Positions 10,215-61,351 of a stretch of 64,000 bases of DNA are shown here, in pieces; positions within the stretch are counted from its first letter, which is position 1; each line of letters starts with the position of its first letter. A program made the position numbers and the translations under genes. The notes beneath the pieces are model-generated. The model ran no database searches, was not told the origin of the DNA, and worked only from the letters and a program-made list of their open reading frames with translations. The stretch lies in NCBI GenBank assembly GCA_000182565.2, contig KQ257457.1, one strand, 5' to 3'. This DNA is from Spizellomyces punctatus DAOM BR117. Its lineage: Eukaryota.

Positions 10215-10760
10215 GGTGTCCTGTGCAGATCCACAAACCAGGGGAATACATGAAGCCGAAGCCACGGTCCAAGGTCAGGTATGATCACGTGCATTGCTTG
10301 GTAATCTGAGCTCCGACAACGCATCCCGGAGGGTAGTGCCCACGTTTGCGTTCTGATGCAGCAACGTTTGTCAGCCAAATACTAGACGAGCTTTGCCATC
10401 TCGAGCACCAATTAGTATCGTATTGTTTATTGTTCAATATATATCCCATTTTTAGTGCATGCTCGAGACCATTATGTAAGCAGCGCAAATGTCCGATGGT
10501 TCTTGGTCGAAGTCGTCGTTGCATAAGGATCGAGTAGCTATTTATGGCTCAAATCATGATCCTTACTGGATATCTGCGCCTACCAGTTCAATCGTCTGGA
10601 ACGTGCCAATTTTACCGATCTGTAATGCTCCTATAGACACGGTCACACATATTGCTCTTGCCTCCCTCCACGACATCCATCGAGGTCATGCGAGATCGCC
10701 GTTCTCAGATTTTATTTGACACTTTACCGATAAAGCGATACACATAGTCCTGCTTTCTCC

Positions 10761-29778: not shown

Positions 29779-31146
29779 ATGCTGCCAAAGAAAAAGCAAA
29801 AGCTTGAAAAACCTACTTGCTTACATACCTGTAACAAGACTTCCTTTGCAAAAGCTTTCTTGCCAAACGAGATCTATCGCCAATGGCTTCTAGATTACAT
29901 CGCCATCATCCATCAACTCGCCGACCATGCTTCCCACGCTCTCAAATTCTACATCCTATCTGCACCAACCTTCACCATGAACGAGGAGACCATCGAAGCA
30001 ATTCTCTATCTTCTCAACAAGGGGGAGGCTTGGCATCCAAGAAAGGAAGCAAAGAAGGCATGGCGGGATTGTTTGCTGCCATATGTTCAACGGTACTGCC
30101 AAATCATCAGCTTCGTTCACCCAAATCTATGAGGTGAGCAGCAATCAGTCAATTACCTGACAGCGAGTATGATGGCGAACCTGAAAGTCAACGTTCAAGA
30201 GCATTTCATGCAGATGCTCCTTCAGTATATCAATCTGCGGCTCGATGTGAAGGGACAGAAGCAGCGACTGCCACCGAAAAGCGATGCACGAAAGGCTTTC
30301 TTTGCTTGGCTACGCTACATGAAGTCAATTTTCCTTTTTGATATCATGCCCGAGTCGCTTGATGACTTGACTGCTGAAGAGAATGAACTTCTAGAAGAGA
30401 TTTGGTCCCTTAACATTCCCCTTTCTGATGACCAGCCACTCGCATATTCCGTTGCTGTAGACCCTCTCGCATTCTTTCCTGCATACTGCAAACTCTCTGG
30501 GCTGTATGAACGACATGGCTTCCGTCGGTTCAGTGCCATTCCACTACGTCAATCCCTCATCCAAAGCCATGTGCGGATCGACACCATCATCCTCTACTCT
30601 CACCTTCTTTGCATCACGCGACGAGAAGCGGAAACTGTTGAAAAGGTCGATTTATGGTTGCGCGTCTGTAATCTGCGGAACAAGGCTTTTAGATCTCGTC
30701 GTGGAATGTGTTTTGAAGGCTCGATCACCACGGATGGAACCTCGGTGTCTGTATACCTAAAGCACCCAGAAGCAGCAGACAAGTATGGAAAGCGCGGAGT
30801 GAGAAAGTCAGCAAAGAGTTTAGAGGACGAAGTTAAAGCGCAATACATGGAGAAAAACTTACCTGCTTGTCGAGCAGCAGAGAATGTTGTCGTTATCGAC
30901 CCAAACAAGCGCGATCTTCTCTACTGCCAAGACAGCCTTGGTACTACATTCCGTTACACCGCAAACCAGCGAGCCATGGAGACAGGTAGCCGCCGAATTG
31001 CAAGGGAGTGGGAAGCAATGAAAGCCGGCGGTATTGACCTCATAGAATCACGAATACCATCTCACAAGACGATGAACCTCATGGACTTTACTCGCTACCT
31101 TCTTGTTTGCCGCGCTGATTGGGATCATCGCAAGGAGTTCTACTCC
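29779..31146 (+). pseudogene. Fanzor1 (TnpB-like RNA-guided nuclease), 5' part
   Basis: NLS-like PKKKQK. ORFs 29779-30132 and 30169+ are in the same frame, separated only by TGA at 30130-30132. Contains GSITTDGTSVSV and RuvC-I VVIDPN (Asp codon 30898-30900). Closely resembles SpuFz1 as recalled. Interrupted at EFYS| by an LTR. Confidence 0.95.
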
Positions 31147-31718
31147 TGTAGCGAACGACTCTGATAAACCGGTTCGCTCAAAGGCATCAGGTGACCACGA
31201 TTGAGGTTTCCGCAATTGTAACCTAAGCTTCGAAACCCCTAAGATCAAACTCGGTTCTGGGCTACACCAGCGCAGCATGAAGGATACATTATGCAGCCAT
31301 GATCGATCATGGCGATGGTCCGAGATGGGAAGATTGGACGCCGCCACCCTAATGAAGGCTATGGAAACTAGTGTAGATGTTACCGTAGCATATTCTTGTA
31401 TAAAAAGAGGAATTCAATAAAATAAGTCAGTGGCCAGAAGCCGTAGCGACAAAAAATCCCCACAACTAGCTTCTCAACCCCAATCCTAGGTTAACAGGAA
31501 CCTAACAGAGCGCTTCAATGGCCTGATCACCTGCACTGAAGCCTCTAAATCCTGCTCGGTTCACAACTAACCGACTCTCCTTGCCTCTCGCCCTCAAGTT
31601 GCTACTGACGCCCAAAGAAAGGATTTGGAGACTACGATTCCTAGTACGGACACCCACACAACCTGCTAGGAGACCCAAGTTGTCTTTACCGTAGTCTACC
31701 AACAAAAAATCCATTACA
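31147..31718 (+). repeat. 5' LTR of element A
   Basis: TGTAGCGAAC...CCATTACA; collinear with 46030-46601. Confidence 0.96.
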
Positions 31719-31872
31719 TGGTGGAGAAGCGCGATGAACTGCCTTCCCCTCTCAAATTCAGCTGAAAACCTTATTCGGTCATACCGAAACTCTTGCGCAA
31801 ACCGAGATCCGCTCAGGTAGCTACTCGGAAACCTTTTCTCTCGTTTCAGAAACAGACTTCACGAAACCGAGA

Positions 31873-34800
31873 ATGATGCTGGTCGAACGCTCTCCAACGC
31901 GAGGCCGCTCACCTGTGATCCAGACTCGTAGTCAGGGTCCTGCGGAGGACATCGAAGTCCCTCCTGCAACACGCCCAAGGCATTCAGGGACCACTTCTGT
32001 CGAACCGGAAGCCCCTAACTTGGCCACGATGGCCTCTGAAGTGGCAGCGTTAAAAGAAGACATTGCCAGCTCGACTGCTGCAATGCAGTTGGCAACTCAA
32101 AATCTTACGGAACAGCTTCATAGGCTTTCCGAACATCAGACAGTGGTGGATGAGCACCTCGCACGAGCCTTAGAAGCCCTAGCGCATCGCCCGCTGCCTG
32201 AACAACCTCTCATAGCACGAGCTACAAGAGAATGGTCCGCAACCCCGTGGGAAACGTCGCACACACCAAGGGAGTGTACCGAACCAAGTTTTTCAGGTCC
32301 AGTGCCTCCAATCCAAGTGCCAGCGGCCCCGTGGGCCAGCGACACCAAGGTCGATTCCTTGAAAGCAAAGGACGTACCCAAGTTTACAGGCAAAAGAAAC
32401 CAAGACATTGAAGAATGGCTCAACAAAGTCCAACTTCTTCAAAACGTTAGCGCAACGTCAGATGCCAGGATGGTACAGCTCCTACCAGCCATGATAGCCG
32501 AGAAAACCCCTGCCGATGCTTGGTTTTACACTCTGGAAGCCCAGGAAACTTGCTCGTGGACCTGGAAAAGGTGGAAAGAAGAACTGCTTCGAGAGTTCCG
32601 AGATCCCCTAACCGAGTCCAAGTGCAAAACCGAATATGTGCACTGCCACGTGAACCCCAAAGAATTTTGCAGCTTTCTCGCATTCATTGACCACAAAACT
32701 CATCTCCAGCGCCTCGCATACGGCGACCGGGCAAACATAGAATGTCCCGCTGACCAGCATTTTGACCTAATAGTTGAACAATTGCCCAGCGACATCCAAA
32801 TCATGGTCAAATCCTGTAACGTCACGAACCTGACCAAATTAAAAGACTTCCTGCGCCTTTATTTTGGCTCTGATGACACCAGAAAATGAGACCCTTGCTA
32901 CAGCGGTGCTGCTGAAGCTCAGAAGAAGTCACAAAAGACCGGAACTGACAAAGGCCCTAAGCAGATGGCTCAACATAAAACCGGAAACCCCGAAAAGGGT
33001 TGCGACGGTCCTCAGAAGATGGTTCCGGACCCCAACAAGGAACCACCAACACCCTGCAAATTCTGTCAGAAAAAGCATTGGAATGTTTTCTGCTGGCAGA
33101 ACCCGAACCGAAAAGATCCTGAAGATGGAAAGAAAGGACCATACAGAGCACCCACGCCCGCAGGTTGGAAACCCAAACAGGAGTCCAAGAAGTCTTACAT
33201 AGTGGAGCTGGACTCGATGTCCGCTACCACCGAGACTCTTTTTTTGGCTTCGGAACTGGAAAGGACAGCTGCCGCTAATCAAGGATTCCACACCATTGGA
33301 TTCTTTCATTCACCCAAGCACTTGGAATCAACAATTTTGATGACCGCACCTCTTTCCGAGGTCATGGAGACTAAGGAAGAGGACCCCCGCATGCCCATGC
33401 AGGGCTGGGACCAAGTCTGGAACAACATAGCCATCATCTGGGGCACCCTGCAAGTGGCTCTGATGATGGGCAACAACCCCCGCGCGCTCAGCTTCTTTGC
33501 CAAAGAACTGAAGCAAGGCGCCGGGCACCTCGGGAACGACCCCTACGCAGTCGCGTGGAGTTCCCACCACCTCTACATTGCTGCCGCAGCCGAAGCTGAC
33601 AAGGATCGAATCCTGCGAAAAGTCCGAGAAGATGGTACCCCTCATTTGATCCTCCTTGCCTGGATAAGGCTCGATGAGCATGAGAAATTCTTGATGTGGA
33701 GCTCCGAAGATCCTGTTATCTTTGATTCTTACACCAACCTGCAACTGGTGGCATTTCTCCTGACAGGCAATATCATTCGCTCAGACTATTATTATCATCG
33801 CAGAAACCCCAAATTTCTGCACATTAAAGACCATCCACGTCTCCAAAGACACGAAGAGAGTGAATGGACGCGTATAGTCATGCTGGCTATCGAACAAGTT
33901 GCTCGCCAGAATAAAACAACAAAACCACAAAACAACAAATCTAGAGAGCACTTTGAGAGTGCGATCAAGGCTATGGAAGCAACAATTAACGACATTGCGC
34001 CCCATTTCGAGGTCGCGGTGCCTTCCATCAACGCCTTCTACTTGGTAGATTTAGGCAATGTACTCAAAAGCCAGACCAAGACCCAAACGCAGCCTTGCTG
34101 GATGCTAGCCATCATCGCTCAGCTCTGGGCACCTGTGGTACTAGACACAGGAGCCTGCGAGTCTCTGGTTTCTGACACATACCAGGGCCTTCTGTTCTCC
34201 GAAACCAATTTGCAGGATGCAGAAACGATGGCTTTCAAAGGCATTGGTGGATGTATCTCATCTACCAAGACAGTATGCCTCGAAACTTCCCTCAGAGGCC
34301 GCGGAGGAGAATACCTGACTTTCCGCGCCTATTTCCGAGTCATTGCATATGGGAAACCTCTCATCATCCTAGCCAACAATGTTCTGGGACATTTGAAACT
34401 CCAAACCTTGGTTCAGGAACCCCCGTTACCCAGTTTCATGGTGATGCTCAAGAATCCGGACATCCTTATCCCTTGCTCCATAACAGATGAGCTGGACACT
34501 GATCACATGCGCGGCACGCCATACAAGACCAAGCAGGGTGAATTCATGAAGGATGTGTCAATGCCACAGCTGACCAAAGCCAAAGCTCAGAAGTCTAGAT
34601 TAACCATGTTAATCACGGGACAGACGCGTGTGGCAGCCCAAACTTTTCTCATCGAAAACCCTCTTGAGGCCACCGCTGCTAGCTCAACGGCCCTGTTAGG
34701 CCTCAAACTGTCCACCGCGACCCATAATTCGGTTGCGGACCCCGAAGAGAACATTTCCAAAGAAGAATGGCAGACACTTCGGAACAAATGGAACCTTGAC

Positions 34801-37800
34801 TCTACGGAGAGGGCTCCAGGGGCCTTCAAAGCCCAATTAAAAGACACGGAACATTTCCACGTCAATCTCAAGCAACCCAAACCCGTGGTCTGGGCCCTAA
34901 TCAACATTCTACGACACTTCCATCAAGCCTTCAGCTATGAGGGTCATCTCATAGGGAACTACACCAAGATTCCTTATGCACCTCGATTTATCTCGGCTCC
35001 GCCACCCCTTTCGAGGCCACGGTCGTACTCTCCGTTGGAGCGGACAGCCCTTGAGACGGAGCGAGACACCATGATGGGGCTTCAGAGGTGGAAACGAACC
35101 ACCAAAGTAACCTTCGCCAGCGATCCTGTTATCATTCGCTATGCAGACAAACCCCCGCGGGTAGCCTTCGACTATCGCCGAGCCAATGACTGCATGGCCT
35201 GGGACCCATATCCCTTTCCCATCATGCTCGACATCCTGAACTGGATCGTTGCAGTCCCATTCCGATACATATCGGGAGGTGACGCAAACAAAGGATTTTA
35301 CCAAATCGCCATCACCGATGCATCGGTACGCAAATGGCTCGTGATCAGACTCCATGACGGCATCTACGAACCACTCTTTATGCCCTTCGGACCCAAGACT
35401 GCCCCTTCGCACTTCTGTCAGGTGATGGACGACACCTTGGGTCCCTCCAAATGGTGAAATATCAACAACTTTGTCGATGATATCCACACACGAGCGGAGA
35501 CAGCCGCGGAAGCCCTAGATGCCATCGCGGACTGGCTCAACTGCTTTTCCAGAGCCAAACTCACCCTAAGACTCGACAAGTGTCAATGGCTCTTTCACCA
35601 GCTCACGGCTCTCGGTTTCGTTGCCTCCTCTCAGGGTCTCGCTACCGATCCAGACAAGGTCGCAACCATAGTCGATTGGCCACGACCCAAATTCATAGGT
35701 GACCTATGGTCCTTTGTGGGTCTCCTAGGGTTCTACGCCCAATTCATCCCCCGCTACGCGGAACTCGTCCGACCCCTGCAAGACACTATCCAAGAGGGCG
35801 TTCGCGAATACTGAGACCTTAAAAAGGGTCGCGCTGACCCAAAGAAAGGTGCTGAAAAGCTCAATTCACCATCCATGCTCGACACGGCGGTGGCCCCTAC
35901 AATCACAGCCACTGGAGCCCGATTTGAGGTTTCGCAACATCCGAAATCTAGCTCCTCAGACCTACCGGCAGTCAATCTATGCCAATCATCGTTGGCGGAC
36001 TTGCCCATTGACCCCTTTTGTGTCAGATGCCTTGCTCGCAAGCGCCCCGACCAAGGTCTGCGCAGATTTATCGCGAAGCGTGAAGTTTCATGGACCGATT
36101 CCCGAAACTCTGCCTTTGCAGCTGCCAAGCAGGCTCTGACAACAGCTCCAGTGCTTGTGGCACCCAGAAAAGGGTTCCCCTACACCCTTCACAGTGACGC
36201 TTCCTACACAGCATTTAATGTCACGCTCAAACAGTTACAGCCAGATGCTTCTAAACGCCCACTGTGCTACCATTCCCGAGGCACCACCACCTCGGAAAAG
36301 AAGGCCCCCCCCCGTCAAACTCAAGGCCGGATGCCTCATTTGGGGCCTCGGAAAACTCCGCCCATACCTCGAAGGCCTGCCTTTCACGGTCATTACCGAT
36401 CACCGAGCTCTTTTGTGGCTCGCTAAATACAAAGGCGAGAACCGTAAGCTTCTCCGCTGGGCCCTCGATCTTAGTTACTGGTCCGAATGGATGACAATCA
36501 TTCACAAACCAGGACGTTTTCACATTGTCGCTGATACACTTTCACGGCTACTAGGAGCGGAAACCCTCCTCTGCTCCACCGCGACCCAAATATGGGTGGC
36601 GGAACACGGAAGACGACGGCTGCGCACCACACCAGCGGCTCTCGCACCTTCCTCAACACTGGCAGATGCCGCCTTCCGTCTGGCATTACAGCCTGCACTC
36701 ATTGCCGCCATCCGTGCTGGCCTCACCGGCCAGCTCCACCCCATAGCCCAACAGGCCTGCACGCTCCTATGGGAGACCAGCCCCAACACCTACACTACAG
36801 CCGACGCGCGCTTTCTTCAGGACTGGCAACGTGCAGATAACCTGCTGTGGCACCATTTTTCAGTCTCCGAAGACCTTTGGCGCCTCTACGTGCCCCCTGC
36901 TTGCACCCCCAAGGTGCGCAAGCTTTTTCACGAGGGGGGAGGACACTTCAGATTCGAAAGAACCTATGCCAGAGCCGCAGCGCAAGTCTGGTGGCCAAAG
37001 ATGGCACAAGATTTCAGAAAACACTGCGCAGGATGTGAAATCTGTCAACACTCAAAAAGGGTACCGCAACTGATTCCGGGGTTGCTGAAACCCATACCAC
37101 CAGCTCCGGGACACTGGACAGTCATCACGACTGACTTTGTAACCAAGCTCCCACTTACTTCCAGAGGGTACGACGCCTTTTGGCTAATAGCATGTAAATG
37201 CTCAAAGAGGATCCATGTATGGCCCCTCAAGAGCACCGCGACAGCTATTCAGGTCGCGGAACTCTTTATAGAATGCTATGTCCCATTGCACGGCATTCCA
37301 GAGACTATTATCTCGGACCGCGACCCCAAGTTTACGAGTCAATTTTGGCAGGAGGTCTGCAAAAACCTAAAGATTAATCAAGAGCTCACCACAGCCTACC
37401 ACCCTCAAGGTGATGGACAATCAGAGAGAGACAACGCAACGGTCTTGCAGGTCCTTACCACAGTGGTCAACACCCAATTAGACGACTGGGACACCTTTCT
37501 TCCGGTTGCGGAATTCATTATCAACGATACGGTACACGAGGCGACAAAAATGACGCGATTCAGAATGGACCTAGGCTATGAGCCCCACAATCCACTGGCG
37601 GATATTGTCAAAAGGCCATCAGAAACCAGAAATGCAGATGCGGAAGAGCTCTGTAAACACCTCGGTGACCTAAACATCCTTATCCAAGATCTGATGATCG
37701 AAGCCCAGGATTCGCAGAAAAGATATTATGATTTATCGCGACGACATTTGGAGTTCCGGAGAGGAGATAAGGTGCTTCTGAGCACAAAAAACCTAGCAGG

Positions 37801-38087
37801 GTATGAGTCCAAGATCGCTCCGAAATGGCTGGGACCAGTCACAGTGACTGACTGTAACCCTCTCCGTGACAACTACAAGTTAAAACTGCCAGACAAGATG
37901 AGACGACTTCATCCATGGTTTCACATATTGAAATTACATCCGTACCAGAAGCCTGTCGACGCCAAAACTGAGGAAAAGGTCGCGGAAGCACAAGCGGAGG
38001 ATTCCGATGCTTCAGAGGGCGAGTTTGAAGTGGAAGTGATAGTAGACCATCGAACCAGGTGCGGAAAATGTCAATTTCGAATACATT
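31873..38087 (+). pseudogene. gag-pol of element A (premature stops and one frameshift)
   Basis: One frame broken by TGA at 32887, 35455 and 35812 and by a shift at the C9 run 36305-36313. Gag VPKFTG..DIEEWL, protease VLDTGA, RT FDYRRAN...MPFG...FVDD, RNase H DAS...ITDH, integrase HHCC/TDFV/ISDRD/GQSE, start of chromodomain EFEVEVIVDH. Confidence 0.92.
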
Positions 38088-38641
38088 TGTGACAGAATTC
38101 TTCTGTCAGTGCTATGGTTATACTGGTTAGATGTGGTTCCAAACTAGTGGTCACATGACTTTGCTGATGGTGTCAGCATTCATTTGACCAGAATTAGATA
38201 AATAAGCAGATTTAGCCATTTCTGGCTAAATTAGATGAGTATCCTGACACACTAGCATCTGCCCCTTTTAATCAAGTGGCACAGTGTATTTAGGATGACT
38301 TCTCTCACTTGTGATTGGCCATAAATGGTGCAATAGGCTGACAAATAGTTTAGGATGACATGTACAAGATCTGATTGGTTGCAAATGGTGCAATAGGCTG
38401 ACAAATAGTTTAGGATGACATGTATGAGTTCTGATTGGTTGCAAATGGTGCAATAGGCTGACAAATAGTTTAGGATGACATGTATGAGTTCTGATTGGGT
38501 AGTTAGGATATAGCATTTGTCAGCCCCTTTTGTCTATAAAAAGAGGACCTCTCTGAGGCCCCTCAAAGGAAAAAAATAACAAGTAGTAACCAAGTCTTCC
38601 CTAGTTTTCTGTTGTCTTCTTGTCCCTGCTAGCCTGTTACA
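38088..38641 (+). repeat. 5' LTR of element B (contains ~3.5 copies of a 60-bp tandem repeat at ~38289-38500)
   Basis: Appears identical to 44149-44702; the unit tttaggatgacatgta...caaatggtgcaataggctgacaaatag recurs with period 60. Confidence 0.96.
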
Positions 38642-39048
38642 TGGTAGCACCACCTTAGACAACAACCCCAGACTCTTAGACCTTCTGTGAGAGATCAGAA
38701 GCTAAGATCCCCAGACCCCCAGACCCTGCCCTAGACCTTCTGAGTAATATCAGAAGACCAACAGACCCCAGACCCCAGACCCTGCCCTAGTCCTTCTGAG
38801 TAATATCAGAAGACCCCTGCCTCTTATCCCAGGCCCAACTTATGCCCAGAACCCCCCCTCAAGGACTCCTACAGACCAGCCCACACCACCCCATACCACA
38901 AACCTACCCCCAGCACAACCTCCAGAACTACCACCAGACACACCACTTGGTTAGCATCAGAAGCTCTGATAAAACAGATAGAGCTTTTCTATTGTGGGAT
39001 TGTGAAGAAGCTGTAGTGTCCCCCTGTATCCTCCCCACCAGTTGTACT

Positions 39049-39235
39049 TGCAAGTAACATTGCATAGTTTGGGCCTGTGACCCACCCTGTCTTGACTGCA
39101 AGTAACATTGCATCTCTTGGGCCTGTGACCCACCCTATCTTGACTGCAAGTAACATTGCATCTCTTGGGCCTGTGACCCACCCTATCTTGACTGCAAGTA
39201 ACATTGCATCTCTTGGGCCTGTGACCCACCCTATT
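39049..39235 (+). repeat. 48-bp tandem repeat x4 in leader of element B
   Basis: tgcaagtaacattgcatctcttgggcctgtgacccaccctatcttgac at 39049, 39097, 39145 and 39193. Confidence 0.93.
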
Positions 39236-39288
39236 GTTATTGTTACAAGTTATATTGTAACTACCCAAGACTCCATCCCATTACCACC

Positions 39289-40200
39289 ATGGCCAGCCAG
39301 GAAGAGATTCTCTTCAACACCATTGCTGAGCTTGACATAGACCAGGTCAGGCAGGAGCTTTATCAAGCAAAGCTCCAGCAGCTGAACTCCACCACACCAG
39401 CCCCTGCTCAGTACCAACCCAGAGTAGATAAATCCCTGGTAAAAGTCCTCCAAAGCAAGTTGAAGCCCTACAAAGGCAACAGGAATGTCGAAGAGATTAG
39501 GACATACCTCCTCAGACTTGAAGAGTACTTCCAGGCAGCTGCAGATCTATCACCAGAAGGCCAACTGTTAGTAGCCACCACCTACTTGGAACTCCATGCT
39601 GAAGTCTGGTGGCAAAGCCATGTCAAGAACCACCCAGTAGGATCCCCTCTCAGAATCCAGTCTTGGGACCAGTTCAAGAGAGCCCTTCAAGAGAACTTCC
39701 TCCCAGCAAATGCCACCAGAGCAGCAAGAGACCAGTTGGCCAGGCTCAAACAACAAGGCTCAGTAAAAGAGTACCTAAACCAGTTCAATACTTTATGCCT
39801 TCAGGTGGATGACTTGTCAGAAGCTGAAAAGTTAGACAAGTTTATCAGAGGGCTTAAACCCAGGGTTCAGGAACAACTGGAGCTCAACCCCACCAGTACC
39901 ATCAACTTAGCCACAGCTGCAGCAACAGCTGATAGGATTGACCAGATCCAGTTCAGCTACCAGAGAAGAAGCCAGGCCACCAGCTACTACTCCCCCAAGA
40001 CTGAGAACTCTGGAGTAGTCCCTATGGAGATAGATAGTATATCCACCAACTCTGGGAAGCCTCTCTCCAAACTCACTGAGGCTGAGAAGACTGAGCTCAG
40101 AAAGAAGGGAGCCTGTTTCAGGTGCAGAAAACCAGGCCATATTGCCCCCCTATGCCCCTTGAAGACCAAGCAGCAGGGAAATGGCAAGCAGACTCAGTAG
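39289..40200 (+). CDS. gag: Gag of element B
   Basis: Retrotransposon gag core (AEVWW...SWDQFKRAL...[10 protein letters not shown]) and CCHC knuckle [14 protein letters not shown]. Confidence 0.95.
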
Positions 40201-43200
40201 AAGATAGAGGTTCTGCCTCTACTGGGGAAGATATCAAGAACCACCACCCTGACACCCACCACCTGGTACACTCTCCTGTTATTCAACCCTTGGACCTATT
40301 GGACCCACCTGAAACCACCCCTGAGACTTTAACTATCCATGGACTTTACCTGGAACCCCAGAGAACCCCAGCATCCCAGAGAACCCCAGAAACCCAGAGA
40401 ATCCCAGAATCCCAGAGAACCCCAGAAACCCAGAAAATCCCAGGACCCCTGAGAACCCCAGAATCCCAGAGAACCCCAGAAACCCAGAGAACCCCAGAAC
40501 CCCAGAGAACCCCAGAAACCCAGAGAACCCCAGAACCCCAGAGAACCCTAGAACCCCAGAAAACCCAGGAACCCCAGAGAACCCCAGAACCCCAGACCAC
40601 CCAGGCCACCTACCAAGAAAGCAAGATCCATGTAGTAGAGGTGGCTCCATACTCTTTAAGTACCCCCAAAGGGCCAAGGATTCCCCAGAGTCACTTGCTG
40701 ACTGTGCAAGGTAGAATCCAAGGAATCCCAGTAACCATTCTCCTGGATAATGGGGCAAACCAACTCTATGTGTCACAGTCCTTTGTCAAGAAGGCACAAC
40801 TGGTGACTCATTCTCTCCCTGGAGCAGAAATCTCTATGGCTGATGACAGAAAGCACCAAGAAATAGGCTTTGTCAAAGGTCTTCAGTACTCAGTAGGAAC
40901 CTACACAGAACAGTCAGACTTTATAGTAGCCCCAATCAAGTTTGACTTGATCTTGGGTATACCTTGGTTTGCCTGGAGGAATCCCAGTATCAACTACAAC
41001 AAGAACACTGTGACCTTCACCACTTCCCAGTACCCCAGAGTCAGATGGTTTGTTAAGCAGGCCAGCTCTTCCAACAAATCCCAGAAGTCCAATCTTATCA
41101 CCATGGTATCAGCAAAGATGTTGGCCAGAACACTGAAGAAGAGGACAGCAACAGCTTTTGCTGTGTATCTCAAGAACCCTCAAGATACCAGCACCCCTCC
41201 AGACACCATGGATTCCAAAGTCACCAAGCTTCTTGAAAACTATCAAGATGTCTTTGCTGAAGAGCTTCCCCCAGGACTTCCCCCTGAGAGATCAGTAGAT
41301 CACAGAATTGAACTCAGTGACCCCAACCAGACCCCCTGGAGACCAACCTACCACCTCTCTTCTTTGGAGTTGGAAGAACTGAGGAAGCAGCTTTCAGAGC
41401 TTCTGGAGGCAGGCCACATCAGACCATCGAAGAGCCCATTTGGAGCACCTATCCTCTTTGTTAAGAAGAAAGAAGGTTCTTTGAGGATGTGTGTGGACTA
41501 CAGGGCTCTGAATAAAATCACCATCAAGAACAGATATCCCCTCCCTAGGATTGATGAGCTGATGGATAGGCTGAATGGAGCCCAGGTGTTTACCAAGCTA
41601 GATCTGAAGTCAGGCTATTACCAGATCAGAGTCCACCCAGAAGACATCCCCAAGACAGCCTTCAGAACCAGATATGGTCACTTTGAGTTCCTGGTCATGT
41701 CCTTTGGAATGACCAATGCCCCAGCCACTTTCATGACTTTGATGAATGATGTCCTTAGACCCTTCTTGGACATCTTTGTTATTGTCTACCTAGATGACAT
41801 CCTCATCTACTCCAAGACCCCAGAAGATCACCTGGACCACCTCAAGCAGGTTCTGCAAGCCCTCAGGCAGAACAAGCTGTATGCCAACCCCAGCAAGTGC
41901 CAGTTCTTCAAGCAAGAAGTAGAGTTTCTTGGCTATGTAGTCTCACATGAAGGAGTCAAGCTTGATCCCAAGAAAGTGCAGACTGTTCAAGAATGGCCCA
42001 CCCCTCAGAGTGTCACTGAAGTCAGACAGTTCATGGGCCTGGTGAACTACTTCCATAGCTTTCTGAAGGACCTGGCAGAGCAAGCTGCACCATTGACAGA
42101 CCTGTTGAGAAATGACAAGCCTTGGACCTGGTCTGAACCTCAGGAGAAAGCTTTTCAGCAGCTGAAGGATATGGTCACCAAAGCCCCTGTACTCAGACCC
42201 TTTGACCCAGCCTTGCCTACCACTGTCTTCCCTGATGCCTCAGGCTATGCAGTTGGTGCATGGCTTGGACAGGATGATGGGAAAGGCATGAGACCAGTTG
42301 CCTACCACTCCAGGAAGATGGCCCCAGCAGAGACCAGATATGACACCAGAGAACAAGAGCTGTTAGCCATCCATGATGCCCTCAGAGTTTGGAGGCCCTA
42401 CCTGCAAGGAACCCCCTTCAAAGTTATCTCAGACCACCAGTCCCTCAAGTGGCTACAGAACCAGCCCTTCTTGACCAGAAGACAAGCCAGATGGGTCATG
42501 AATTTCCAATCTTTTGACTTTGAGATTGGCTATGGCCCAGGAAGACTCCACACAGTGGCAGACATCCTGTCTAGAAGACCAGACCTGGCCCCAAGATGCA
42601 TCAAGTGCAAGGCCTTGGTGACAGCAGAGTTGAATGCTGTGACCCACACCACCAGCACCCTTCAAGAGAGATTGAAGACCAGTACCACAGAAGACCCAGA
42701 ACTTCAAGAGCTCATCCAAGCTTTGGATGACCCCAGGAGACCAGAAGACCAGCAACAAAGGCTCAAGTACCTCAGCCATCAAGATGGGTTACTCTATTTC
42801 CAGGACAGGATCTTTGTTCCTAGTGACCCAGACCTAAGGTTGAGCCTACTCCAAGAAACCCATGACACTCAGTATGCTGGACACTTTGGCATCACCAAGA
42901 CCCATGATGCCCTAGCAAGGCATTACTACTGGCCAAGGATGTACAAGGACATTAAGAAGTATGTCAAGTCTTGTGATTCCTGCCAGAGAAGCAAACCTAG
43001 TCAGCAACCACCAGCAGGCTTGCTGCAGCCCCTCCCAGTACCCAAGACCAGATGGAGCCAGATCTCCATTGACCTGATCCCTGACCTACCCATGACTTCC
43101 TCTGGTCACAATGCCATCTTTGTCATTGTTGACAGATTGTCAAAGAGAGGCCACTTCATCCCTACCACCACCAAAGCCTCAGCCAAGGACCTGGCCCTGC

Positions 43201-44132
43201 TCTTCTTGAAGCACATCTTCAAGCACCATGGCCTCCCAGAAGTGATTGTATCAGACAGAGACACCAAGTTCACCAGTTCATTCTGGTCCAACTTGATGCA
43301 ACTCTTAGGCTGCAACACCCTCCTAGCCACTGCAAGACACCAGCAGACCAATGGACAGGCAGAGAGAACCATCAAGACTTTGAAGATCTACCTGAGAGCT
43401 TTCCTGGAGTACAACATGAAGAATTGGGAAGATCTTCTCCCCTTTGCTGAGTTTGCCTACAACAACAGCATCTCAGAAACCACAGGCTTCACCCCATTCT
43501 ACTTGGAGAATGGCCAGCATCCCAGGACCCCAGCAACACCACCAGGAGAAAGCAATGATCCTGAAGCAACAGACTTCCACCAGTATATTCAGCAACTGCT
43601 TCAAGTAGCCAAGGATAACATGATACTGGCCCAAGAAAGACAAGTTCAGCAAGCCAACAAGTCTCTCAGCAAGGCCCCAAGCTACCCCCTAGGCTCCAAA
43701 GTTTGGCTGTCTAGAGAAGGTATCACCCCAGAAGAAGAAGCCCAGAGGCCAGCCCAGAAACTTCTTCACCCCTGGCTTGGACCTTACAGAATCAAGGCCA
43801 AGGATGAATTTCAGAATTACACCCTGGAGCTCCCCAGCACCATGAAGATTCATCCAGTGTTCCATGTGAGACTCCTCAAGCCTTACCTGGACCCCACAGA
43901 GGACTTCCCTACCAGACCAGTACCCCCTGAGCCTGAGCCAATTATCCAGCAAGGAGAAGAGTTTTGGGAAGTTGAGAAGATTCTGGACCACAAGATCAGA
44001 AGGAAGAAGAATCTCTACCTCATCAAGTGGAAAGGATATCCCTCCTCTCAGAACACCTGGGAACCAGAAGAAAACCTCCTACCCCATGGCAGAGAAATCT
44101 TGAAGGAGTTCCTAGCCCAGAAGGGAGCTTAA
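40122..44132 (+). CDS. pol: Pol of element B (PR-RT-RNaseH-IN-chromodomain), -1 frame relative to gag
   Basis: [39 protein letters not shown]...[19 protein letters not shown]...YLIKWKGY...NTWEPEENL; no stops. Confidence 0.97.
40351..40600 (+). repeat. 18-bp coding minisatellite (TP[E/A][T/P/S]QR)n at N-terminus of Pol B
   Basis: accccagaaacccagaga-like unit repeated ~13 times. Confidence 0.9.
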
Positions 44133-44148
44133 TCTTAAAGTGGGGGAG

Positions 44149-44702
44149 TGTGACAGAATTCTTCTGTCAGTGCTATGGTTATACTGGTTAGATGTGGTTC
44201 CAAACTAGTGGTCACATGACTTTGCTGATGGTGTCAGCATTCATTTGACCAGAATTAGATAAATAAGCAGATTTAGCCATTTCTGGCTAAATTAGATGAG
44301 TATCCTGACACACTAGCATCTGCCCCTTTTAATCAAGTGGCACAGTGTATTTAGGATGACTTCTCTCACTTGTGATTGGCCATAAATGGTGCAATAGGCT
44401 GACAAATAGTTTAGGATGACATGTACAAGATCTGATTGGTTGCAAATGGTGCAATAGGCTGACAAATAGTTTAGGATGACATGTATGAGTTCTGATTGGT
44501 TGCAAATGGTGCAATAGGCTGACAAATAGTTTAGGATGACATGTATGAGTTCTGATTGGGTAGTTAGGATATAGCATTTGTCAGCCCCTTTTGTCTATAA
44601 AAAGAGGACCTCTCTGAGGCCCCTCAAAGGAAAAAAATAACAAGTAGTAACCAAGTCTTCCCTAGTTTTCTGTTGTCTTCTTGTCCCTGCTAGCCTGTTA
44701 CA
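44149..44702 (+). repeat. 3' LTR of element B
   Basis: TGTGACAGAATT...CCTGTTACA, same length and sequence as the 5' LTR. Confidence 0.96.
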
Positions 44703-44706
44703 ACAT

Positions 44707-45972
44707 TGGTCAGGATACCCACCCCATGAGGATACCTGGGAACCAGAGGAAGCCCTAACAGAGGCTTCCGAAGCCTTAGAAGAGTACTGGAGATCCAGAG
44801 CCCCCACTAGCGCACTAGTAGAGGACTCTTTGGTAGTCAGCCTTGCAGGCAACGCCCCGGAAGATACGGCTTACGCTTCCGACCACCAATGCTTCGCGGT
44901 TTATCCGGATGATAGCTCACGTGATAATCACGCCCTCTCTCCAGAAAGAAAACCAGTTTCGCGTGGCTTACCTCACCAGTCGAGAACGCCACACCAAGCC
45001 TCCCGATCATGCTTACGCGCGTCCGAGCTGTCAAAATCAGCCGGCGACGACCTTAAAAGGGCGCCCCTGCTCGCCCCCCCTCTTTTTTCTTCTTCAACTA
45101 CCAACGAACTACTTCCCTTACACACTCACTCTGCTTCGCAAACCCTTTCTATCGACACCGAAACAAAAGCTTTCATTTCCAACACCATGACCACCGATAT
45201 CCGAGGACAACAAGGAGTCAGCATCCTCTCTACCCTTGAGGAAGGCTATCCCTGGTCAGAAGTAAGCGACGCCTTCACTGCCGAGAACTCTATCAAGCGG
45301 CTCGGAGCAGCCATGGCCACCTGGGTCGAAGTTTGGATTCGTGAGTTGTACGAAGACCCAAACAAAACCCTTGAACACTATCGTGGTGAAGATTGGGTGG
45401 TTGACAGGGCTTCAAAGCCTTACGCCACGAGCCAGCCCCTCATGATGCATATCGCGGAGCCCTACAGTAGGGCTTCCGACAGCGGTCAAGCTGCTGTCGG
45501 TATCGTCGCCAATGCAAAAAAGATAGGCAAGAGATTACGGGACGTACCCTGCGCTGCCTGGCTTGATGCTGGGGTCCCTCAACATGCGGCCGGAAACCCC
45601 AAAACGGCCTGCTTCACCCTCTGGCCCGATCACGAGGCCCACGATTTCGCGGACATAGCCATCGAAGCCGCGAGAGCAGTGTTGTTAAAGCTAGCCAATG
45701 CAGCTGAAACCACAGAAGAGCAGCTCCGTCCCAAACATCGGGAGCACGCCTATTACCACTTTCGAGTGGTTAACTTGAAAAGGGCCGCAGAGACGTTCAC
45801 AGCCCTCTACGTAACCCGAGCCAACGGTTCCAGGACACCTGGAACCCCGGCTCCGGAAGCCACTGACCAAATTTGGTTCTGCGCGAACGTCATGGGGCGC
45901 GCTACCATAATCTGGACGATCAACGAAGACAGCCTTGAAGCTGACGACGACTATCCAGTTGCGTCATGGTAG
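44707..45972 (+). pseudogene. 3' remainder of element A pol: second half of chromodomain plus long unknown extension or extra ORF
   Basis: Rejoining across the TSD gives FRIH/WSGYPPHEDTWEPEEAL. The frame stays open to 45972, with an internal ACCATG at 45187. Confidence 0.85.
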
Positions 45973-46029
45973 AAGCGAGGTTCAGGCACTCACAGACGAG
46001 TCGCCGAACCTTCTTTTTCGAAGGGGGGA

Positions 46030-46601
46030 TGTAGCGAATGACTCTGATAAACCGGTTCGCTCAAAGGCATCAGGTGACCACGATTGAGGTTTCTGCAATT
46101 GTAACCTAAGCTTCGAAACCCCTAAGATCAAACTCGGTTCTGGGCTACACCAGCGCAGCGTGAAGGATACGTTACGCAGCCATGATCGATCATGGCGATG
46201 GTCCGAGATGGGAAGATCAGACGCCGCCACCCTAATGAAGGCTACGGAAACTAGTGTAGACGTTACCATAGCATATTCTTGTATAAAAAGAGGAATTCAA
46301 TAAAATAAGTTGGCAGCCAGAAGCCGTAGTGACAAAAAATCCCCACAACTAGCTTCTCAACCCCAATCCTAGGTTAACAGGAACCTAACAGAGCGCTTCA
46401 ACGGCCTGATCACCCGCACTGAAGCCTCTAAATCCTGCTCGGTTCACAACTAACTGACTCTCCTTGCCTCTTGCCCTCAAGTCACTACCGATGCCCAAAG
46501 AAAGGATTTGGAGACTACGATTCCTAGTACGGACACCCACACAACCTGCTAGGAGACCCAAGTTGTCTTTACCATAGTCTACCAACAAAAAATCCGTTAC
46601 A
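46030..46601 (+). repeat. 3' LTR of element A
   Basis: TGTAGCGAAT...CCGTTACA, 572 bp, ~25 transitions versus the 5' LTR. Confidence 0.96.
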
Positions 46602-46605
46602 CTCC

Positions 46606-47115
46606 CATCCTGCTCATACTCGATGGAAATGGCACTCTTTCATCAATCGGCAGCAAAGCGAATCAGACCTCATAAGTAACATGCACAACAAGTATGGTGA
46701 AAACTTTACTGTTGTGATGGGTGATTGGAGTGACGCTGGTCGAACTGCGAGATTTCAGACCTCATCAAAGACAATAGGCTGGTGCACTGTCTTCAAGCAG
46801 AACAGGATCAACTGCTTCCTTCTCGACGAGTACAAGACCTCATCTGTCTGCCCTCACTGTTCATCCGATGACTTCCTTGAAAAAAGCTTCAAAACACGAC
46901 CTCATTCAAGACCTTGGCGACGACGAGAAGGCAAGATTGAAAAAGTCCATGGATTGCTGGGTTGTACCAACCCTAACTGTCAGCAAGCCTGGACGATGCG
47001 CTACTGGAATCGAGATACGCTGAGCACCTGCAATATGCTGATAATCGTGCAATCAATGTTGGATGGACACAGTAGACCAGAAGTGTTCAGCAGGAGTGTT
47101 CCAGCCGTAGCTTAG
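46606..47115 (+). pseudogene. Fanzor1, 3' part (RuvC-II, Zn finger, RuvC-III)
   Basis: Continues in frame as HPAHTRWKWHSFINRQ; VVMGDWS, LLDEYKTS (Glu 46828-46830), CPHC...CTNPNC, WNRD (Asp 47014-47016), stop 47113-47115. Confidence 0.95.
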
Positions 47116-47129
47116 ATTGGTTAGATTAG

Positions 47130-47218
47130 GTTTTCCGAGCCGGTTGTCGCCGGTTCAATCCCTGGTGCGGGTGCTAGTGCCAATACCCACCGGCTCCGCA
47201 CTACCTTTCCTGGACTTG
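47130..47218 (+). ncRNA. Fanzor omegaRNA (scaffold ~47130-47203 plus ~15-nt flanking guide)
   Basis: Lies between the Fanzor stop and the right end. GAGCCGGT (47137-47144) can pair with ACCGGCTC (47189-47196), GTGCGG (47165-47170) with CCGCAC (47196-47201), and GGGTG with TACCC. Position matches known TnpB/Fanzor omegaRNAs; ends are inferred. Confidence 0.85.
47174..47201 (-). repeat. Right TIR of Fanzor element
   Basis: CTAGTGCCAATACCCACCGGCTCCGCAC followed by TA. Confidence 0.97.
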
Positions 47219-49311
47219 AATATAAGATGGGGTCGCTCTGAATCCTATTCGCATATCTATCTAGCTTCAACACACGCTAGTGGTAGTGGTCTATTCTCCT
47301 CGTCTTGCATCTGAAGAACATCATGAGCGACGGAATTTCGGTTAGCTTTGAAATCCTACATTACTTTACTAAACCTGTATGAACTCCATGACGACAGGTT
47401 TCTACTCCTATTTTGGCTATTGTTAACGATAATATCGAACAGTTTCCTTACAGAAATTTTTATTAATGGAGAGTTTGTTCCATTGTTGTCTGGCAAGACA
47501 TTTCCAACCATCGATCCGACGTGAGTCCTTGCCAACGGCCGCCAGCTTTGTATGCCCAGTCATATGTGAGCAGCTACACAAGACTGGAGCCTTTGTGAGT
47601 TGTTGGACAGATGTACGCTGGGATTATCCGCCATCATTCTGCTATCTTACTTTCCATACCAGGTCGTCCCATGGAACTTCCCTTTGATGATGCTGAGATG
47701 GAAGTTGGGCCCTGCATTGGCACAGGCAATACAATTGTTTTAAAGGCATATATGTTACAGATAATTACATATCCCAAAATTCCTTCGGAAGAAACTGGCA
47801 GACATCAAAAAAAAATCCTCTCTTTCCGCGCTCAAAGTCGGCCAATTGACTGCTGAAGCAGAATTCCCACCAGGCGTTATTAATGTACTCTCTGGTTTCG
47901 GGTCCACGGCTGGGTATGCCATTACTCAACATCCTGGTATCAGCAAAGCTCCTTTCACTGGCTCCACAGCTCCACCAGCGGCTGGTTGAAAGGTGCTGAT
48001 GGTAGCCGCCGCGATCAACTCAAGAAGATAGGCTTGAAGCTCGGGGACAGATGCCCCAATATTGTTTTTCGACGATGCAACTTGGAAGAACCGTGCATGC
48101 TGTCTCTACCGCTGACTTTCAAATCATGGACAGGTGTGCTATTCGGGCACTCGCTTGTACATCCAGAATGGACATCTATGAAAGATTTGTCGAGCAATTC
48201 AAATAAAAGATAGCATTATAGCAGATCATATGAGTCAAGAGTTTTGTAGTCTCAACTTCGACTCATATCAGATGGAAATAATAAACCTGGGAAATTGTTT
48301 CCACCCAGAAAACGAACCGTGGATCCGTGGTAGACGCTCTCTAGTATAATCGTGTGCATCGATTTGGGAAAAGAAGTCGCCAAGTGTGGGTATGGAGGGC
48401 ATACTGTTGGCAAACAAGGCTACTTCATCATCTCATATTATCACAGGCGTTAAATATCATATGATTGTCGCCAGAAAGGAGGGTTTTGGCCCTATCGTCG
48501 CTGCCATTCGCTTCAGACCGAGGAAGAGGTCATGCATGAAGCAAATGAAACGAATTACAGGTTGGCAGCTGCAGTCCATTCCCGAGATTTGGTAGGGTAT
48601 TCGGGTGATGGAAATTGTGAAAGAAGGAATAGTGTGGGGTTAATTGTATAGGAAGTATGCAGATGCTCGACGTACCCAATGTTTCCAGTTACGTAGAGGT
48701 AAGTCTTACCTGGGTTTTCTTCGCATAGTTTTTCTATCCCAGCTACTATTGGCAAATTACAAAAACTCGGATGTCGGACGCAAACTGGATGAACAGGTTC
48801 TTCGCGAGTACAGCTTGAATGTACTCCTACGGATTCACACCACTGTTGGCATGTCTAGGTGTAATAAGTCTGTCCTTTTGCTGACCGAGGTGAAATCGGT
48901 CGTCATAAAAGTGAACACTTTGGACCTGGCAACAACCATGCTAGCATTGACAGAAAATGCGGCACTTCACTCCCCTGTCGTTGTCACTTCTTGGCAGAAC
49001 AGTCCGGCGCTTGAATGTGATTATAGTAATGAGAGGTACTGCAATGGACGAATTGAATACGCAGCTCATATGCACACGGATAAGAAGAAAGGGTTATAAA
49101 AGTTGTGAACAGATGCTATGGGTTGGTAAGTTAATGCCAAAGGACGCAGAAACCCCAGCAGAAACCCCAGCAGCGTACCTGCCTTTCCGATCGCTGATGT
49201 AAGCAAGTACCACTGAACTATTGGCTGAACCGCTGTGCGGATGACACGAACGTTTGCATTACGGGCATTGACTGCTAATACCTCATTTTTAACACTTTTT
49301 CAGCCAACGTA

Positions 49312-50826
49312 ATGTCGGATTCCTCACCAAGTACACCACCGTCCAAGTGGCGATATCGTCTATATGTCCTTGCCGGCCTTCCATTTCTTCTTTCTCCCGT
49401 GTCCCTGTTCTCCCTAGCGGTTCTCTACGTATCCCTTCTCTGTGCAGTTCTCCTCTATGCGGCTTATATAGCCATGAAGGACTTTGTTGTGGATGAACTT
49501 CAACAACGAGGATGGCTAACGCAAGAGGTGGTCGATTCTCCTCAAAGGGATGAAGCCATAGGGGCGGATAACACCAAACTTGAGGAAGACTTCCCGATTC
49601 TTTCGTACCCAATTGTTGGCCAACTATTTATGGGCCCTCCGTTGGTTGTCTACGTATCAACAAGAGGAACTGTGCAAGGATGGCTGTATAGTTCAAAATG
49701 GGTCGTTCGGAAGAGCGTCCAGGGAATTCCCATTGTCTGGAGAGCATCCCTTTCCCTTGGTCAACGGGTCCTCAACGGCTGCAAAATACTTTGGGACGTG
49801 GGAGTGACTATATGGCGCACGGTCGAAACTCCGGTCGTGGCGGTCTTCTCCAGTGTGTATAGGACAACTGCTGACGTGTTCCTTGCTGTATGGCACTACA
49901 CTACAGTTGTACTCCCGACGCTCACTGAACAGGTCCTGTCGAGCATGTGGAAAGTCGCTATCTATTTTGCCGAAGGAACAAAGTGGATAGGGAGGAAGAT
50001 ATATAACTTAGGGGCATTTCTTGGCAGACCTTTCGGGAAGGTCATGTACGGCATATACGAGTTCCTTTCCATTCAGTTCCTCCGAGGAATGCGTCTGGCA
50101 CTCAACATTCTGACAACAGTAGAAGCAAAACTTCGGCCTCTTTTTTTGACAGTCGTTGAAACTCTTACTGTCACTTTCCGCTCAGTGATAGTAATTGTGT
50201 TTCGGGCTACCTCATCTCTTGCCCAATCCGTGGTCACACTCGGCCAGGCACTCTTCGTTCCTCCCCTCCGCTTCCTTTTCCGTACCACTACCGCTGCTCT
50301 TAGAATCACTCGCAATGTCAGCATTAAAACGACAGATCTGCTTGTACGGAGCGCCCGCCCTGTTCTCAGTGTGTCATTTCAGCTATTTCATTATCTTCAG
50401 GGCATCCTTGCCACCAGTGGAGCATACACTTTTGTTTTATCCCTTCCCGACCGCATAGTAAACCTCATAGACGCACTGTGCTACGCCTTTGAGGCATCGC
50501 TTTCGATGATCGTCAAGCATACATATGCGCAAACCTTGTATATTCACCAAATAGCCTCGCCTGTCTTCCTTAAACTCCTTGAGATACTTCAACCGTTGTT
50601 GGACGTGGGATTTAGTGCCTTAGGATTGGTGCAAAAAGCTGGTGGCATTTATCTTGTGTATGCTGTGCAGGTGACAAGGCGAGTGGGATCTGCTGGAGCC
50701 AGAATATCGCTGTACATTGCTTTGGAAGTGAAAAGGGCCGCTGAGCGAGCCCGTCGTGCTGGTGATGCGATAGGTAAACAGGTTGCTAAAGTGGTGAGCA
50801 CCGGGATTGCTAGGACCTCAAAGTGA
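49312..50826 (+). CDS. Hypothetical hydrophobic/amphipathic membrane protein
   Basis: 504-aa intronless ORF with an N-terminal TM hairpin and long hydrophobic-basic helical segments; no family recognised. Confidence 0.7.
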   Translation: MSDSSPSTPPSKWRYRLYVLAGLPFLLSPVSLFSLAVLYVSLLCAVLLYAAYIAMKDFVVDELQQRGWLTQEVVDSPQRDEAIGADNTKLEEDFPILSYPIVGQLFMGPPLVVYVSTRGTVQGWLYSSKWVVRKSVQGIPIVWRASLSLGQRVLNGCKILWDVGVTIWRTVETPVVAVFSSVYRTTADVFLAVWHYTTVVLPTLTEQVLSSMWKVAIYFAEGTKWIGRKIYNLGAFLGRPFGKVMYGIYEFLSIQFLRGMRLALNILTTVEAKLRPLFLTVVETLTVTFRSVIVIVFRATSSLAQSVVTLGQALFVPPLRFLFRTTTAALRITRNVSIKTTDLLVRSARPVLSVSFQLFHYLQGILATSGAYTFVLSLPDRIVNLIDALCYAFEASLSMIVKHTYAQTLYIHQIASPVFLKLLEILQPLLDVGFSALGLVQKAGGIYLVYAVQVTRRVGSAGARISLYIALEVKRAAERARRAGDAIGKQVAKVVSTGIARTSK

Positions 50827-60422: not shown

Positions 60423-61351
60423 GGCTGTCGTGGAGTTTGCAAGGAGGGAAGGAACAACTGACGGGCTGATAAAAATAGCTTTTGCGGGCAGGGGAAACAA
60501 AGGAAGGTGTTCCAAAAAGCGGAGTTGAGCATCGCGTAAGTCTCCATCAAGATGAAGCGTCTGTGGGACATTTAGCCGTCACGCGAATGAATGAATTTAA
60601 CCATATATGGATATATTGCAATTGACGCTTATTTAAACAGCCGATACTCATTTCGCATAAGTGTTCTTTCTTGGGCATTGGTAATAACAATGTTCAAACA
60701 TGTTTGTGATGGCAGAGTTTAGTCATGATAAATGTTGCAGACTTGCCAAGGTGCATTGCATTGACGGAGGATGTCATTCAAAGTCATTGCTGATGGATGT
60801 CAAATGACGAGTGCATCTTAAGATTGAAACGAACCGTTTCCCCACATCGTCAGCATTTTGTGTGCCATAGGATGGACAGTTCTGGAAATGCCCGATAGTG
60901 TCCTCAATGTACCATACAGACAAAGTGTTGATTTACAACGCCAAGTGCGCTCTACATTCTGCACAAATGGAATTTCCGTTCAAAAACAGCGAGCCAAGCA
61001 TATCAACAATGTATGATATCGAATATTATGAACTCACGCCAATTCTTGGATGCGGCCTATATGAGATCTTATCTTATAATACTAGAAAATGACCCAGCCC
61101 CGTCATCTGTTGCTGGACTTGTCTCATCAGGATTAGAACATCGTTTTTGCCACAATAAAGACCTTTACTGGGATATATACATTATAAAGTATATAGCAAA
61201 GTGCTTGCGTACTGTAGCTGTATTTGCTTTCTTATTATTTTTTGAGGTTGTCTGCAATGCTTGATGTCAGGTGCCACGAGAGTGGCGCAGCATGTGGCTT
61301 GCACCGCTTGCCAAACTCCGCCTGTTGCTCTGAACAGCAGGTCGACTGATC

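Follow-up and report, generated by a model that had tools for sequence, protein, structure and literature searches.

How can a retrotransposon come to be almost completely free of the dinucleotide CpG while keeping all of its genes? The question is raised by a locus of the chytrid fungus Spizellomyces punctatus DAOM BR117, a species in which, according to a statement in a 2025 paper (PMC12695648), 5-methylcytosine (5mC) is confined to transposons. The stretch of DNA that was analysed, hereafter the window, comprises 64,000 nucleotides of contig KQ257457.1 (assembly GCA_000182565.2) and holds two long terminal repeat (LTR) retrotransposons, one inside the other: element B, at 38088–44702, is nested in the chromodomain-coding end of an older chromovirus, element A. 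It is B that lacks CpG, and its CpG-null state is exact and element-wide, with borders that are the ends of the element itself.

Within the 6615 bp of B, which have a G+C (GC) content of 48.2%, there are just two CG dinucleotides, at 39489 and 41428, a recount which returned both the number and the coordinates given in the original prediction. The same prediction held that hundreds should be present, and the computed expectation is indeed 336 from the observed/expected ratio (o/e) of the flanks or about 380 from base composition summed by part. The CpG o/e of B is therefore 0.005, as against 0.63–1.13 in the other 1-kb windows across the 64 kb, such that the sliding-window calculation proposed as a check gave no flank-like value in B; the neighbouring DNA is rich in CpG, as had been claimed, with an o/e of 0.78–0.91 in the flanking parts of element A. 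The depletion is spread over every part of B, with 0 CpG against 21.4 expected in each LTR, 0 against 36.1 in the leader (including the primer-binding site), 1 against 56.3 in gag and 1 against 245.4 in pol. The CpG-free gaps within B accordingly measure 1411, 1939 and 3341 bp, where no gap elsewhere in the window exceeds 166 bp, and the nearest CpGs outside lie at 38078, 10 bp before the start of the 5′ LTR, and at 44769, 67 bp past the end of the 3′ LTR. Moreover, all four-letter words that lack CG occur in B, and the depletion is thus specific to CpG.

Apart from this composition, B is a complete, intact and autonomous Ty3/Gypsy chromovirus. Its parts, all on the plus strand, are as follows, with the evidence in brackets (where no other evidence is named, the assignment was read from the letters themselves).

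38083–38087, plus strand: target-site duplication ACATT, left copy (ACATT stands directly beside both LTR ends)
38088–38641, plus strand: 5′ LTR of B, 554 bp, TG...CA, no CpG (100% identical to 44149–44702)
near 38535, plus strand: TATAAAAAG box in the 5′ LTR
38642–38653, plus strand: primer-binding site (PBS) TGGTAGCACCAC, directly after the 5′ LTR
38654–39288, plus strand: untranslated leader, no CpG (CpG count, tandem-repeat search)
39289–40200, plus strand: gag, with capsid domain and CCHC knuckle, containing the CpG at 39489 (PF03732, 3e-20; PF19259, 1.3e-13; knuckle from the translation)
40176–40182, plus strand: candidate −1 frameshift heptamer GGGAAAT, read G GGA AAT in the gag frame (proposed from the gag/pol overlap and the frames)
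40095–44132, plus strand: pol open frame, −1 relative to gag, containing the CpG at 41428 (translation, Pfam domains)
44137–44148, plus strand: polypurine tract (PPT) AAAGTGGGGGAG, directly before the 3′ LTR
44149–44702, plus strand: 3′ LTR of B (identical to the 5′ LTR)
44703–44707, plus strand: target-site duplication ACATT, right copy

The gag and pol frames translate without interruption, in agreement with the earlier description of both as open. In order, pol encodes a protease (RVP_2, residues 207–311, E 1e-6), a reverse transcriptase (RVT_1, 456–615, E 2.2e-43), an RNase H (RT_RNaseH, 704–807, E 4.7e-32), an integrase (Integrase_H2C2, 911–969, E 8e-25; rve, 990–1075, at 24 bits and so under its cut-off of 32.6) and a C-terminal chromodomain (Chromo, PF00385, 1291–1340, E 6.5e-19, 68 bits with a cut-off of 25.1). 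This domain order with its chromodomain, the Ty3-type capsid and CCHC knuckle of gag, the direct LTRs with TG...CA ends, the 5-bp target-site duplication, the PBS and the PPT are all features which B shares with the chromoviruses (Ty3/Gypsy, Metaviridae). The heptamer G GGA AAT at 40176 could plausibly serve as the slip site for passage from the gag to the pol frame. Three sets of tandem repeats are also found in B. A 60-bp repeat, present 2.9 times, lies in the U3 region of each LTR upstream of the TATA box (38323–38498 and 44384–44559), and the leader holds a 56-bp unit (38677–38815) and a 48-bp unit (39049–39234); these may be enhancer or packaging elements. The start of pol, ahead of the protease, has an 18-bp unit repeated 13.6 times (40353–40596), which encodes a PETQRT-like six-residue repeat. 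No further copy of B or solo LTR is present within the window, where self-BLAST returned two LTR pairs only.

The PBS deserves separate comment, since the original prediction regarded it as a yeast-type initiator site in which CpG had been changed to CpA. Its letters, TGGTAGCACCAC at 38642–38653, are as that prediction gave them, and its start, TGGTAGC, is compatible with an initiator tRNA that ends in ...GCUACCA, which we take as the putative primer. The PBS of a retroelement is, however, recopied from the primer tRNA in each cycle, and a plain match between the PBS of B and the tRNA of its host is therefore the likelier case. Searches for tRNA genes and Rfam families in the window gave no match, and CATGGTAGCNCCNC occurs in 0 of the 91 related pol loci that are described below.

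How, then, does B encode its proteins? It does so by coding around CpG: the proteins carry no scar, and they are not broken. The expectation that arginine would be written by AGA and AGG alone is fully borne out, with CGN at none of the 18 Arg codons of gag or the 78 of pol (0/95 in the joint count for B), as compared with 95/149 in element A and 94/129 (73%) in four host open reading frames (ORFs). Similarly, a single NCG codon is found among the 415 codons for Ser, Pro, Thr and Ala, and a single C|G junction between codons where 143.7 are expected. The avoidance is conditional on the following base, as is evident from synonymous positions. At four-fold sites C makes up 58% if the next codon starts without G (n=509) and 1% before G (n=192), and at two-fold C/T sites the corresponding values are 78% (n=273) and 0% (n=72); in other words, 1 of 264 synonymous opportunities for C|G has been taken. 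Before G, the base that stands in place of C is A in 58% of cases and T in 29%, and among the dinucleotides in excess in B the highest is AG (+261), with TG (+91) and CA (+30) following. Of 40 conserved Arg columns, B keeps 32, where nine relatives keep 27–37, and in only two of the 40 has Arg turned to Gln, His, Cys or Trp.

Taken together, these features point to a CpG-null state that is old and equilibrated and not the outcome of a recent burst of mutation, because C before G has been replaced mostly by A, where fresh deamination would give mostly T. The proposal that the lineage had 'purged' its CpG suggests a deamination footprint, in place of which the codon data show this older state. 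Some simpler causes were considered and set aside. A single recent episode of hypermutation would have left about 60–70% of the Arg codons as Cys, Trp, His, Gln or stop, and is excluded by the 32/40 conserved Arg columns and by the replacement of C mainly with A. Low GC content or amino-acid composition is likewise excluded, GC being 48% and third-position C 34%, as is a codon usage like that of the host, whose ORFs favour CGN.

What might drive such a loss is suggested by the element in which B lies. The parts of A, again on the plus strand, are the following.

31147–31718, plus strand: 5′ LTR of A, 572 bp (95.6% identical to 46030–46601)
31719–38087, plus strand: A interior to the left of B, CpG o/e 0.78 (domains, CpG count, frames)
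44708–46029, plus strand: A interior to the right of B, the chromodomain end of pol, CpG o/e 0.91 (domains, CpG count)
46030–46601, plus strand: 3′ LTR of A (LTR comparison)

The pol of A is about 31% identical to that of B. Its two LTRs differ by 25 bases at 21 sites, and 25/25 of these fall within ancestral CpG, as CG changed to TG or CA; 17 of the sites retain CG in one copy only, the other having TG or CA, and the remaining four have TG in one and CA in the other, from which it follows that at these four both copies were hit. By contrast, none of the approximately 496 non-CpG positions differs, and the chance that all of the differences should fall in CpG is about 1e-22. In total, 38 ancestral CpGs can be inferred in the LTRs of A, of which 21 differ, about one third having been lost per LTR. 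Any preceding base is accepted, with a modest lean towards ACG (changed cytosines: ACG 11/36, CCG 7/40, GCG 3/36 and TCG 4/40, or 11/36 against 14/116 for the other three), and ACG is under-represented in A relative to the flanks, with a ratio of 0.77. The interior of A bears similar marks, in that all three of its in-frame stops, at 32887, 35455 and 35812, are TGA, as a change of CGA to TGA gives, although one of the three may be a natural gag stop; that at 35455, the sole one inside the alignment to relatives, falls in a variable column. A further defect of A, a change of reading frame near 36140–36424, lies in its RNase H/integrase part at an overlap of two open frames, and is not explicable by CpG decay. 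Variation in reads and contigs concurs. At least 30 variants lie over A: among the 40 of 528 variants that were listed, 30 do so, of which 19 show a CpG in place of the TpG or CpA of this copy, one goes in the opposite direction and 10 have nothing to do with CpG.

A retrotransposon starts out with two identical LTRs, and the CpG changes of A therefore arose after integration, in DNA. With 21/38 CpG sites changed, and an upper bound of about 3 for the 496 other positions, the mutation rate of CpG in the integrated transposons of this host is no less than roughly 90-fold that of other bases. As for whether the process spares single-copy genes, the flanks have a CpG o/e of 0.87–0.90 and the host ORFs use CGN for 73% of Arg.

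This timing bears on the possibility that the pressure acts on RNA, with a host factor that recognises CpG in the RNA of the element, in the manner of ZAP with the retroviruses of vertebrates, taking the place of DNA methylation. All of an LTR element is present in its genomic RNA, and a depletion as even as that of B would fit a cause at the RNA level or at the DNA level; however, the CpG-directed process demonstrated at this locus acts on integrated DNA, known suppression at the RNA level is far weaker than an o/e of 0.005, and we know of no ZAP-like factor in fungi. An explanation of this kind is very improbable.

The two CpGs that B retains also invite an observation in connection with the sequence contexts of A. 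Both (39486–39495 and 41425–41434) lie in one shared octamer, TCGAAGAG, which is read in different frames in the two genes (GTC GAA GAG in gag, TCG AAG AGC in pol); agreement at six flanking bases has a chance of about 1 in 4096. TCG is among the less mutated contexts in the LTRs of A, and both of the TCGA sites of A are unchanged in both LTRs.

From the state of B and the process seen in A, we consider it probable, though with appreciable room for doubt, that the lineage of B reached its CpG-null state under a host regime which methylates and hypermutates the CpG of transposons. The first step of such a route, in which integrated copies lose CpG by C-to-T change on either strand, is seen in A. 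In the second, copies hit at CGN Arg codons or at other constrained CpGs would die while sublineages low in CpG would persist, and over many rounds of copying this may lead to an element with no CpG and unchanged proteins. Thereafter, a CpG-null copy would offer no substrate, and would undergo neither CpG methylation nor decay by that route, such that it could stay intact inside methylated repeat DNA. Chromodomains have a targeting role of this kind, and the chromodomain integrase of B probably sends it to such DNA; its location inside another transposon is observed directly. A corollary is that the identical LTRs of B do not provide a date, because the fast CpG clock has no sites in B, and A, for its part, has no LTR difference outside CpG.

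Pieces of the B family in other sequencing runs are 0.7–1.6% from B, and pieces of the A family 4.8–7.6% from A (24 of 157 pieces), a lower divergence that fits slower decay of B but also a younger family. In run X16 a contig passes directly from 38084 to 44706, and is thus a copy of A without B, with an empty site, and in run X9 a contig end has the LTR start of B (44149) behind other flanking DNA, and so represents another insertion of B or a solo LTR. As to expression, the ten bins over B in RNA run X24 have depths of 0–0.43, as compared with 0.13–2.1 in the interior of A and 77–89 in its LTR bins, about 6 in 100 of that run having been read and its strain being one that may not carry B. 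A bin at depth 2 over B consists of mismatched reads from another element. At 42358–42429, in the RNase H region, 10–19 reads of this run have about 92% identity to B and three CpGs where B has none, two of which differ from B by transversion; their first mate is on the plus strand, opposite to the reads of A, and they have the look of antisense transcription or of a sister element that is expressed. The claim that B escapes decay by removal of the target divides into two. Its mutagenesis half is well supported, given the 25/25 LTR differences and TGA stops of A and the intactness of B, but its silencing half is not supported, the depth of about 0–0.4 over B being no higher than that over the interior of A.

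It is at this point that a more directly adaptive explanation must be weighed, namely that selection keeps B CpG-null in order to avoid silencing by methylation, with immunity from mutation as a side benefit; B would then keep its capacity for transcription and movement in places where its competitors are shut down by the host. The near-perfect avoidance at synonymous sites is what such selection would produce, and the changes of C to A and of CGN to AGR require transversions, which suggests selection against the dinucleotide over a footprint of deamination. The promoter region of the LTR is CpG-free as well, and the loose end of the X9 contig, as the LTR start of B at another flank, indicates at least one further insertion. 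Nevertheless, a very high rate of CpG mutation, given time, yields near-perfect avoidance too, silencing by histone marks or small RNAs needs no CpG, and the RNA depth over B just described, with its limits of sampling and strain, lends no help. We therefore regard this explanation as unlikely, though not negligible.

The relatives of B that were compared do not share its composition. In 91 related pol segments (28–59% amino-acid identity), taken from viral, metagenome and mis-binned 'prokaryote' contigs, CpG o/e has a median of 0.686 and extremes of 0.178 and 1.206, and B, with 1 CpG in pol against 245 expected, is an outlier among related chromovirus pol genes, which is where it departs from the chromoviruses that it otherwise resembles. 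Absence of CpG as a general chromovirus trait is hence rejected, 0/91 segments being near B. Among 5.8 billion proteins, the nearest to B are at 68% for pol (P0004) and 67% for gag (P0243), both from metagenomes; a metagenome scan with the pol of B gave one locus, at 29% identity, and scans of viral contigs with the pol of B, P0004 and P0243 gave nothing close. Words like those of B turned up in metagenome runs from soil and rhizosphere, and also under the labels of two other organisms, mostly as small shares, and were not used to assign habitat or host range. As an aside, 79 of the contigs (L013–L091), filed under bacterial and archaeal genomes and metagenome-assembled genomes, encode chromovirus pol; they are most likely eukaryotic, and mis-binned or contaminating.

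Such distance from any known relative leads to the question of whether the composition of B evolved in some other host with a much stronger pressure on CpG and was then brought in by horizontal transfer, in which case it would reveal little about the present host. An origin of this kind would account for the presence in the same genome of an element, A, that is not depleted in CpG, and would sit easily with a search in which no protein exceeded 68% (pol) or 67% (gag) and the nearest came from metagenomes. On the other hand, once CpG is left aside the codon usage of B is very like that of A (relative synonymous codon usage over 51 codons, r = 0.74), with C at third positions standing at 0.339 in either element, and neither resembles the host, as the r of B and of A against the four host ORFs is −0.05 and −0.15. 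Furthermore, no organism with a pol o/e near 0.005 is found among the 91 relatives, and the host itself has a CpG-directed process able to produce the trait. An imported composition is accordingly improbable.

Returning to a CpG-null state reached under host methylation and hypermutation, several points weigh against it and should be set out together. The link to 5mC rests on the statement in one paper (PMC12695648) and on the mutation pattern of A. A, in the same genome, keeps a CpG o/e of about 0.8 and 64% CGN among its Arg codons, and residence in this host alone therefore does not force the loss of CpG; the trait of B may have been acquired elsewhere, or over a much longer time here. Replacement of C by A instead of T is not a product of deamination alone. 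B is nearly unread in RNA run X24, with no sign of a transcriptional benefit, and the element of about 92% similarity in the same RNA carries three CpGs that B does not have. If the assembly were from nanopore reads only, base-calling errors at 5mCpG could mimic some of the differences in A, although the result for B would be unaffected by them. Finally, the nearest known proteins are at only 68% (pol) and 67% (gag).

A stronger form of the preferred reading can be framed, in which B is a naturally 'unmethylatable' autonomous retrotransposon. Selection would long have kept its genome CpG-null, by a choice of codons that depends on context and by recoding through transversions, and B would live in the CpG-methylated heterochromatin of a chytrid that bears a DNA methyltransferase, where neither 5mC marking nor CpG hypermutation could reach it. 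This we put forward tentatively, as a possibility that falls somewhat short of an even chance.

It is instructive to compare the locus with known systems. Repeats of Pucciniomycotina undergo hypermutation at TpCpG that resembles repeat-induced point mutation (RIP), as given in the abstract of Horns et al. 2012 (PMC3318451), and in Microbotryum, according to the abstract of Horns et al. 2017 (PMC5381629), Gypsy-like elements persist under RIP-like hypermutation. To the extent of these abstracts, the C-to-T changes of A resemble the fungal cases in being limited to one cytosine context in transposon copies, and B recalls Microbotryum in that transposons go on living, and being selected, under the defence. 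The present case differs in its chytrid host, in a plain CpG target with any preceding base in place of TpCpG, and in having one lineage, B, that is rid of essentially all target sites, the like of which neither abstract reports. Deamination of 5mC also decays CpG in the methylated transposons of vertebrates and plants (PMC13297926, section 1.2), to which the changes of CG to TG or CA on either strand in A are akin; the bias in A, with 21/38 CpG changed against 0 of about 496 other positions, is much stronger, and here it is the active element, B, that is itself CpG-free, not merely dead copies.

A further parallel is provided by HIV-1 and other vertebrate viruses, in which CpG is suppressed and ZAP is thereby evaded. 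Like them, B has a genome recoded to avoid CpG without loss of its proteins, but the case of HIV-1 involves a vertebrate RNA sensor and a milder suppression. In a literature search, in which most full-text subscription papers were out of reach, no natural CpG-free fungal transposon and no CpG hypermutation in chytrids were found. What is new at this locus is an LTR divergence confined to CpG, in A, beside an intact CpG-null relative.

The host ORFs of the window include PAS, kelch, RBR-ligase and FAD-oxidase genes, of which the last has its best match, at 89% identity, in a Spizellomyces sp. 'palustris' protein, the next matches all being from chytrids. Four long open frames (10734–12350, 30133–31164, 49279–50826 and 61334–63043; 343–569 amino acids) have no Pfam family at E 0.001, and all but that at 30133–31164 use CGN for Arg as the host does. 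Just outside the 3′ LTR of A, at 47090–47180, lies a decayed tRNA-like stretch with a D-arm-like GTAGCTTAGATTGGTTAGA and a T-arm-like GGTTCAATCC, for which ARAGORN and Rfam made no call. RNA reads pile up over 47126–47167, where T is present at 47158 in 4585 of 5067 reads and the read ends are unrelated on both sides; from the mismatch, an abundant related RNA must exist elsewhere.

In the usual picture, transposons decay under host cytosine methylation and the mutations that it brings. This locus sets two outcomes side by side, with A losing its CpG and B without the target yet in possession of all its protein domains. If the link between them holds, B would be a clean natural case of a transposon that has evolved beyond a sequence-specific genome defence, and the identity of LTRs would be unusable as a clock for CpG-null elements. 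Were the 'unmethylatable' reading true as well, B would represent a counter-defence by complete removal of the target, and the locus would give the first indication that chytrids possess a hypermutation defence specific to CpG. Nanopore and RNA data for the organism are described in the 2025 paper (PMC12695648), which also cites Medina et al. 2020, a study whose title reports transformability. Whether CpG methylation itself silences the transposons of early fungi would then, if the link holds, become directly testable.

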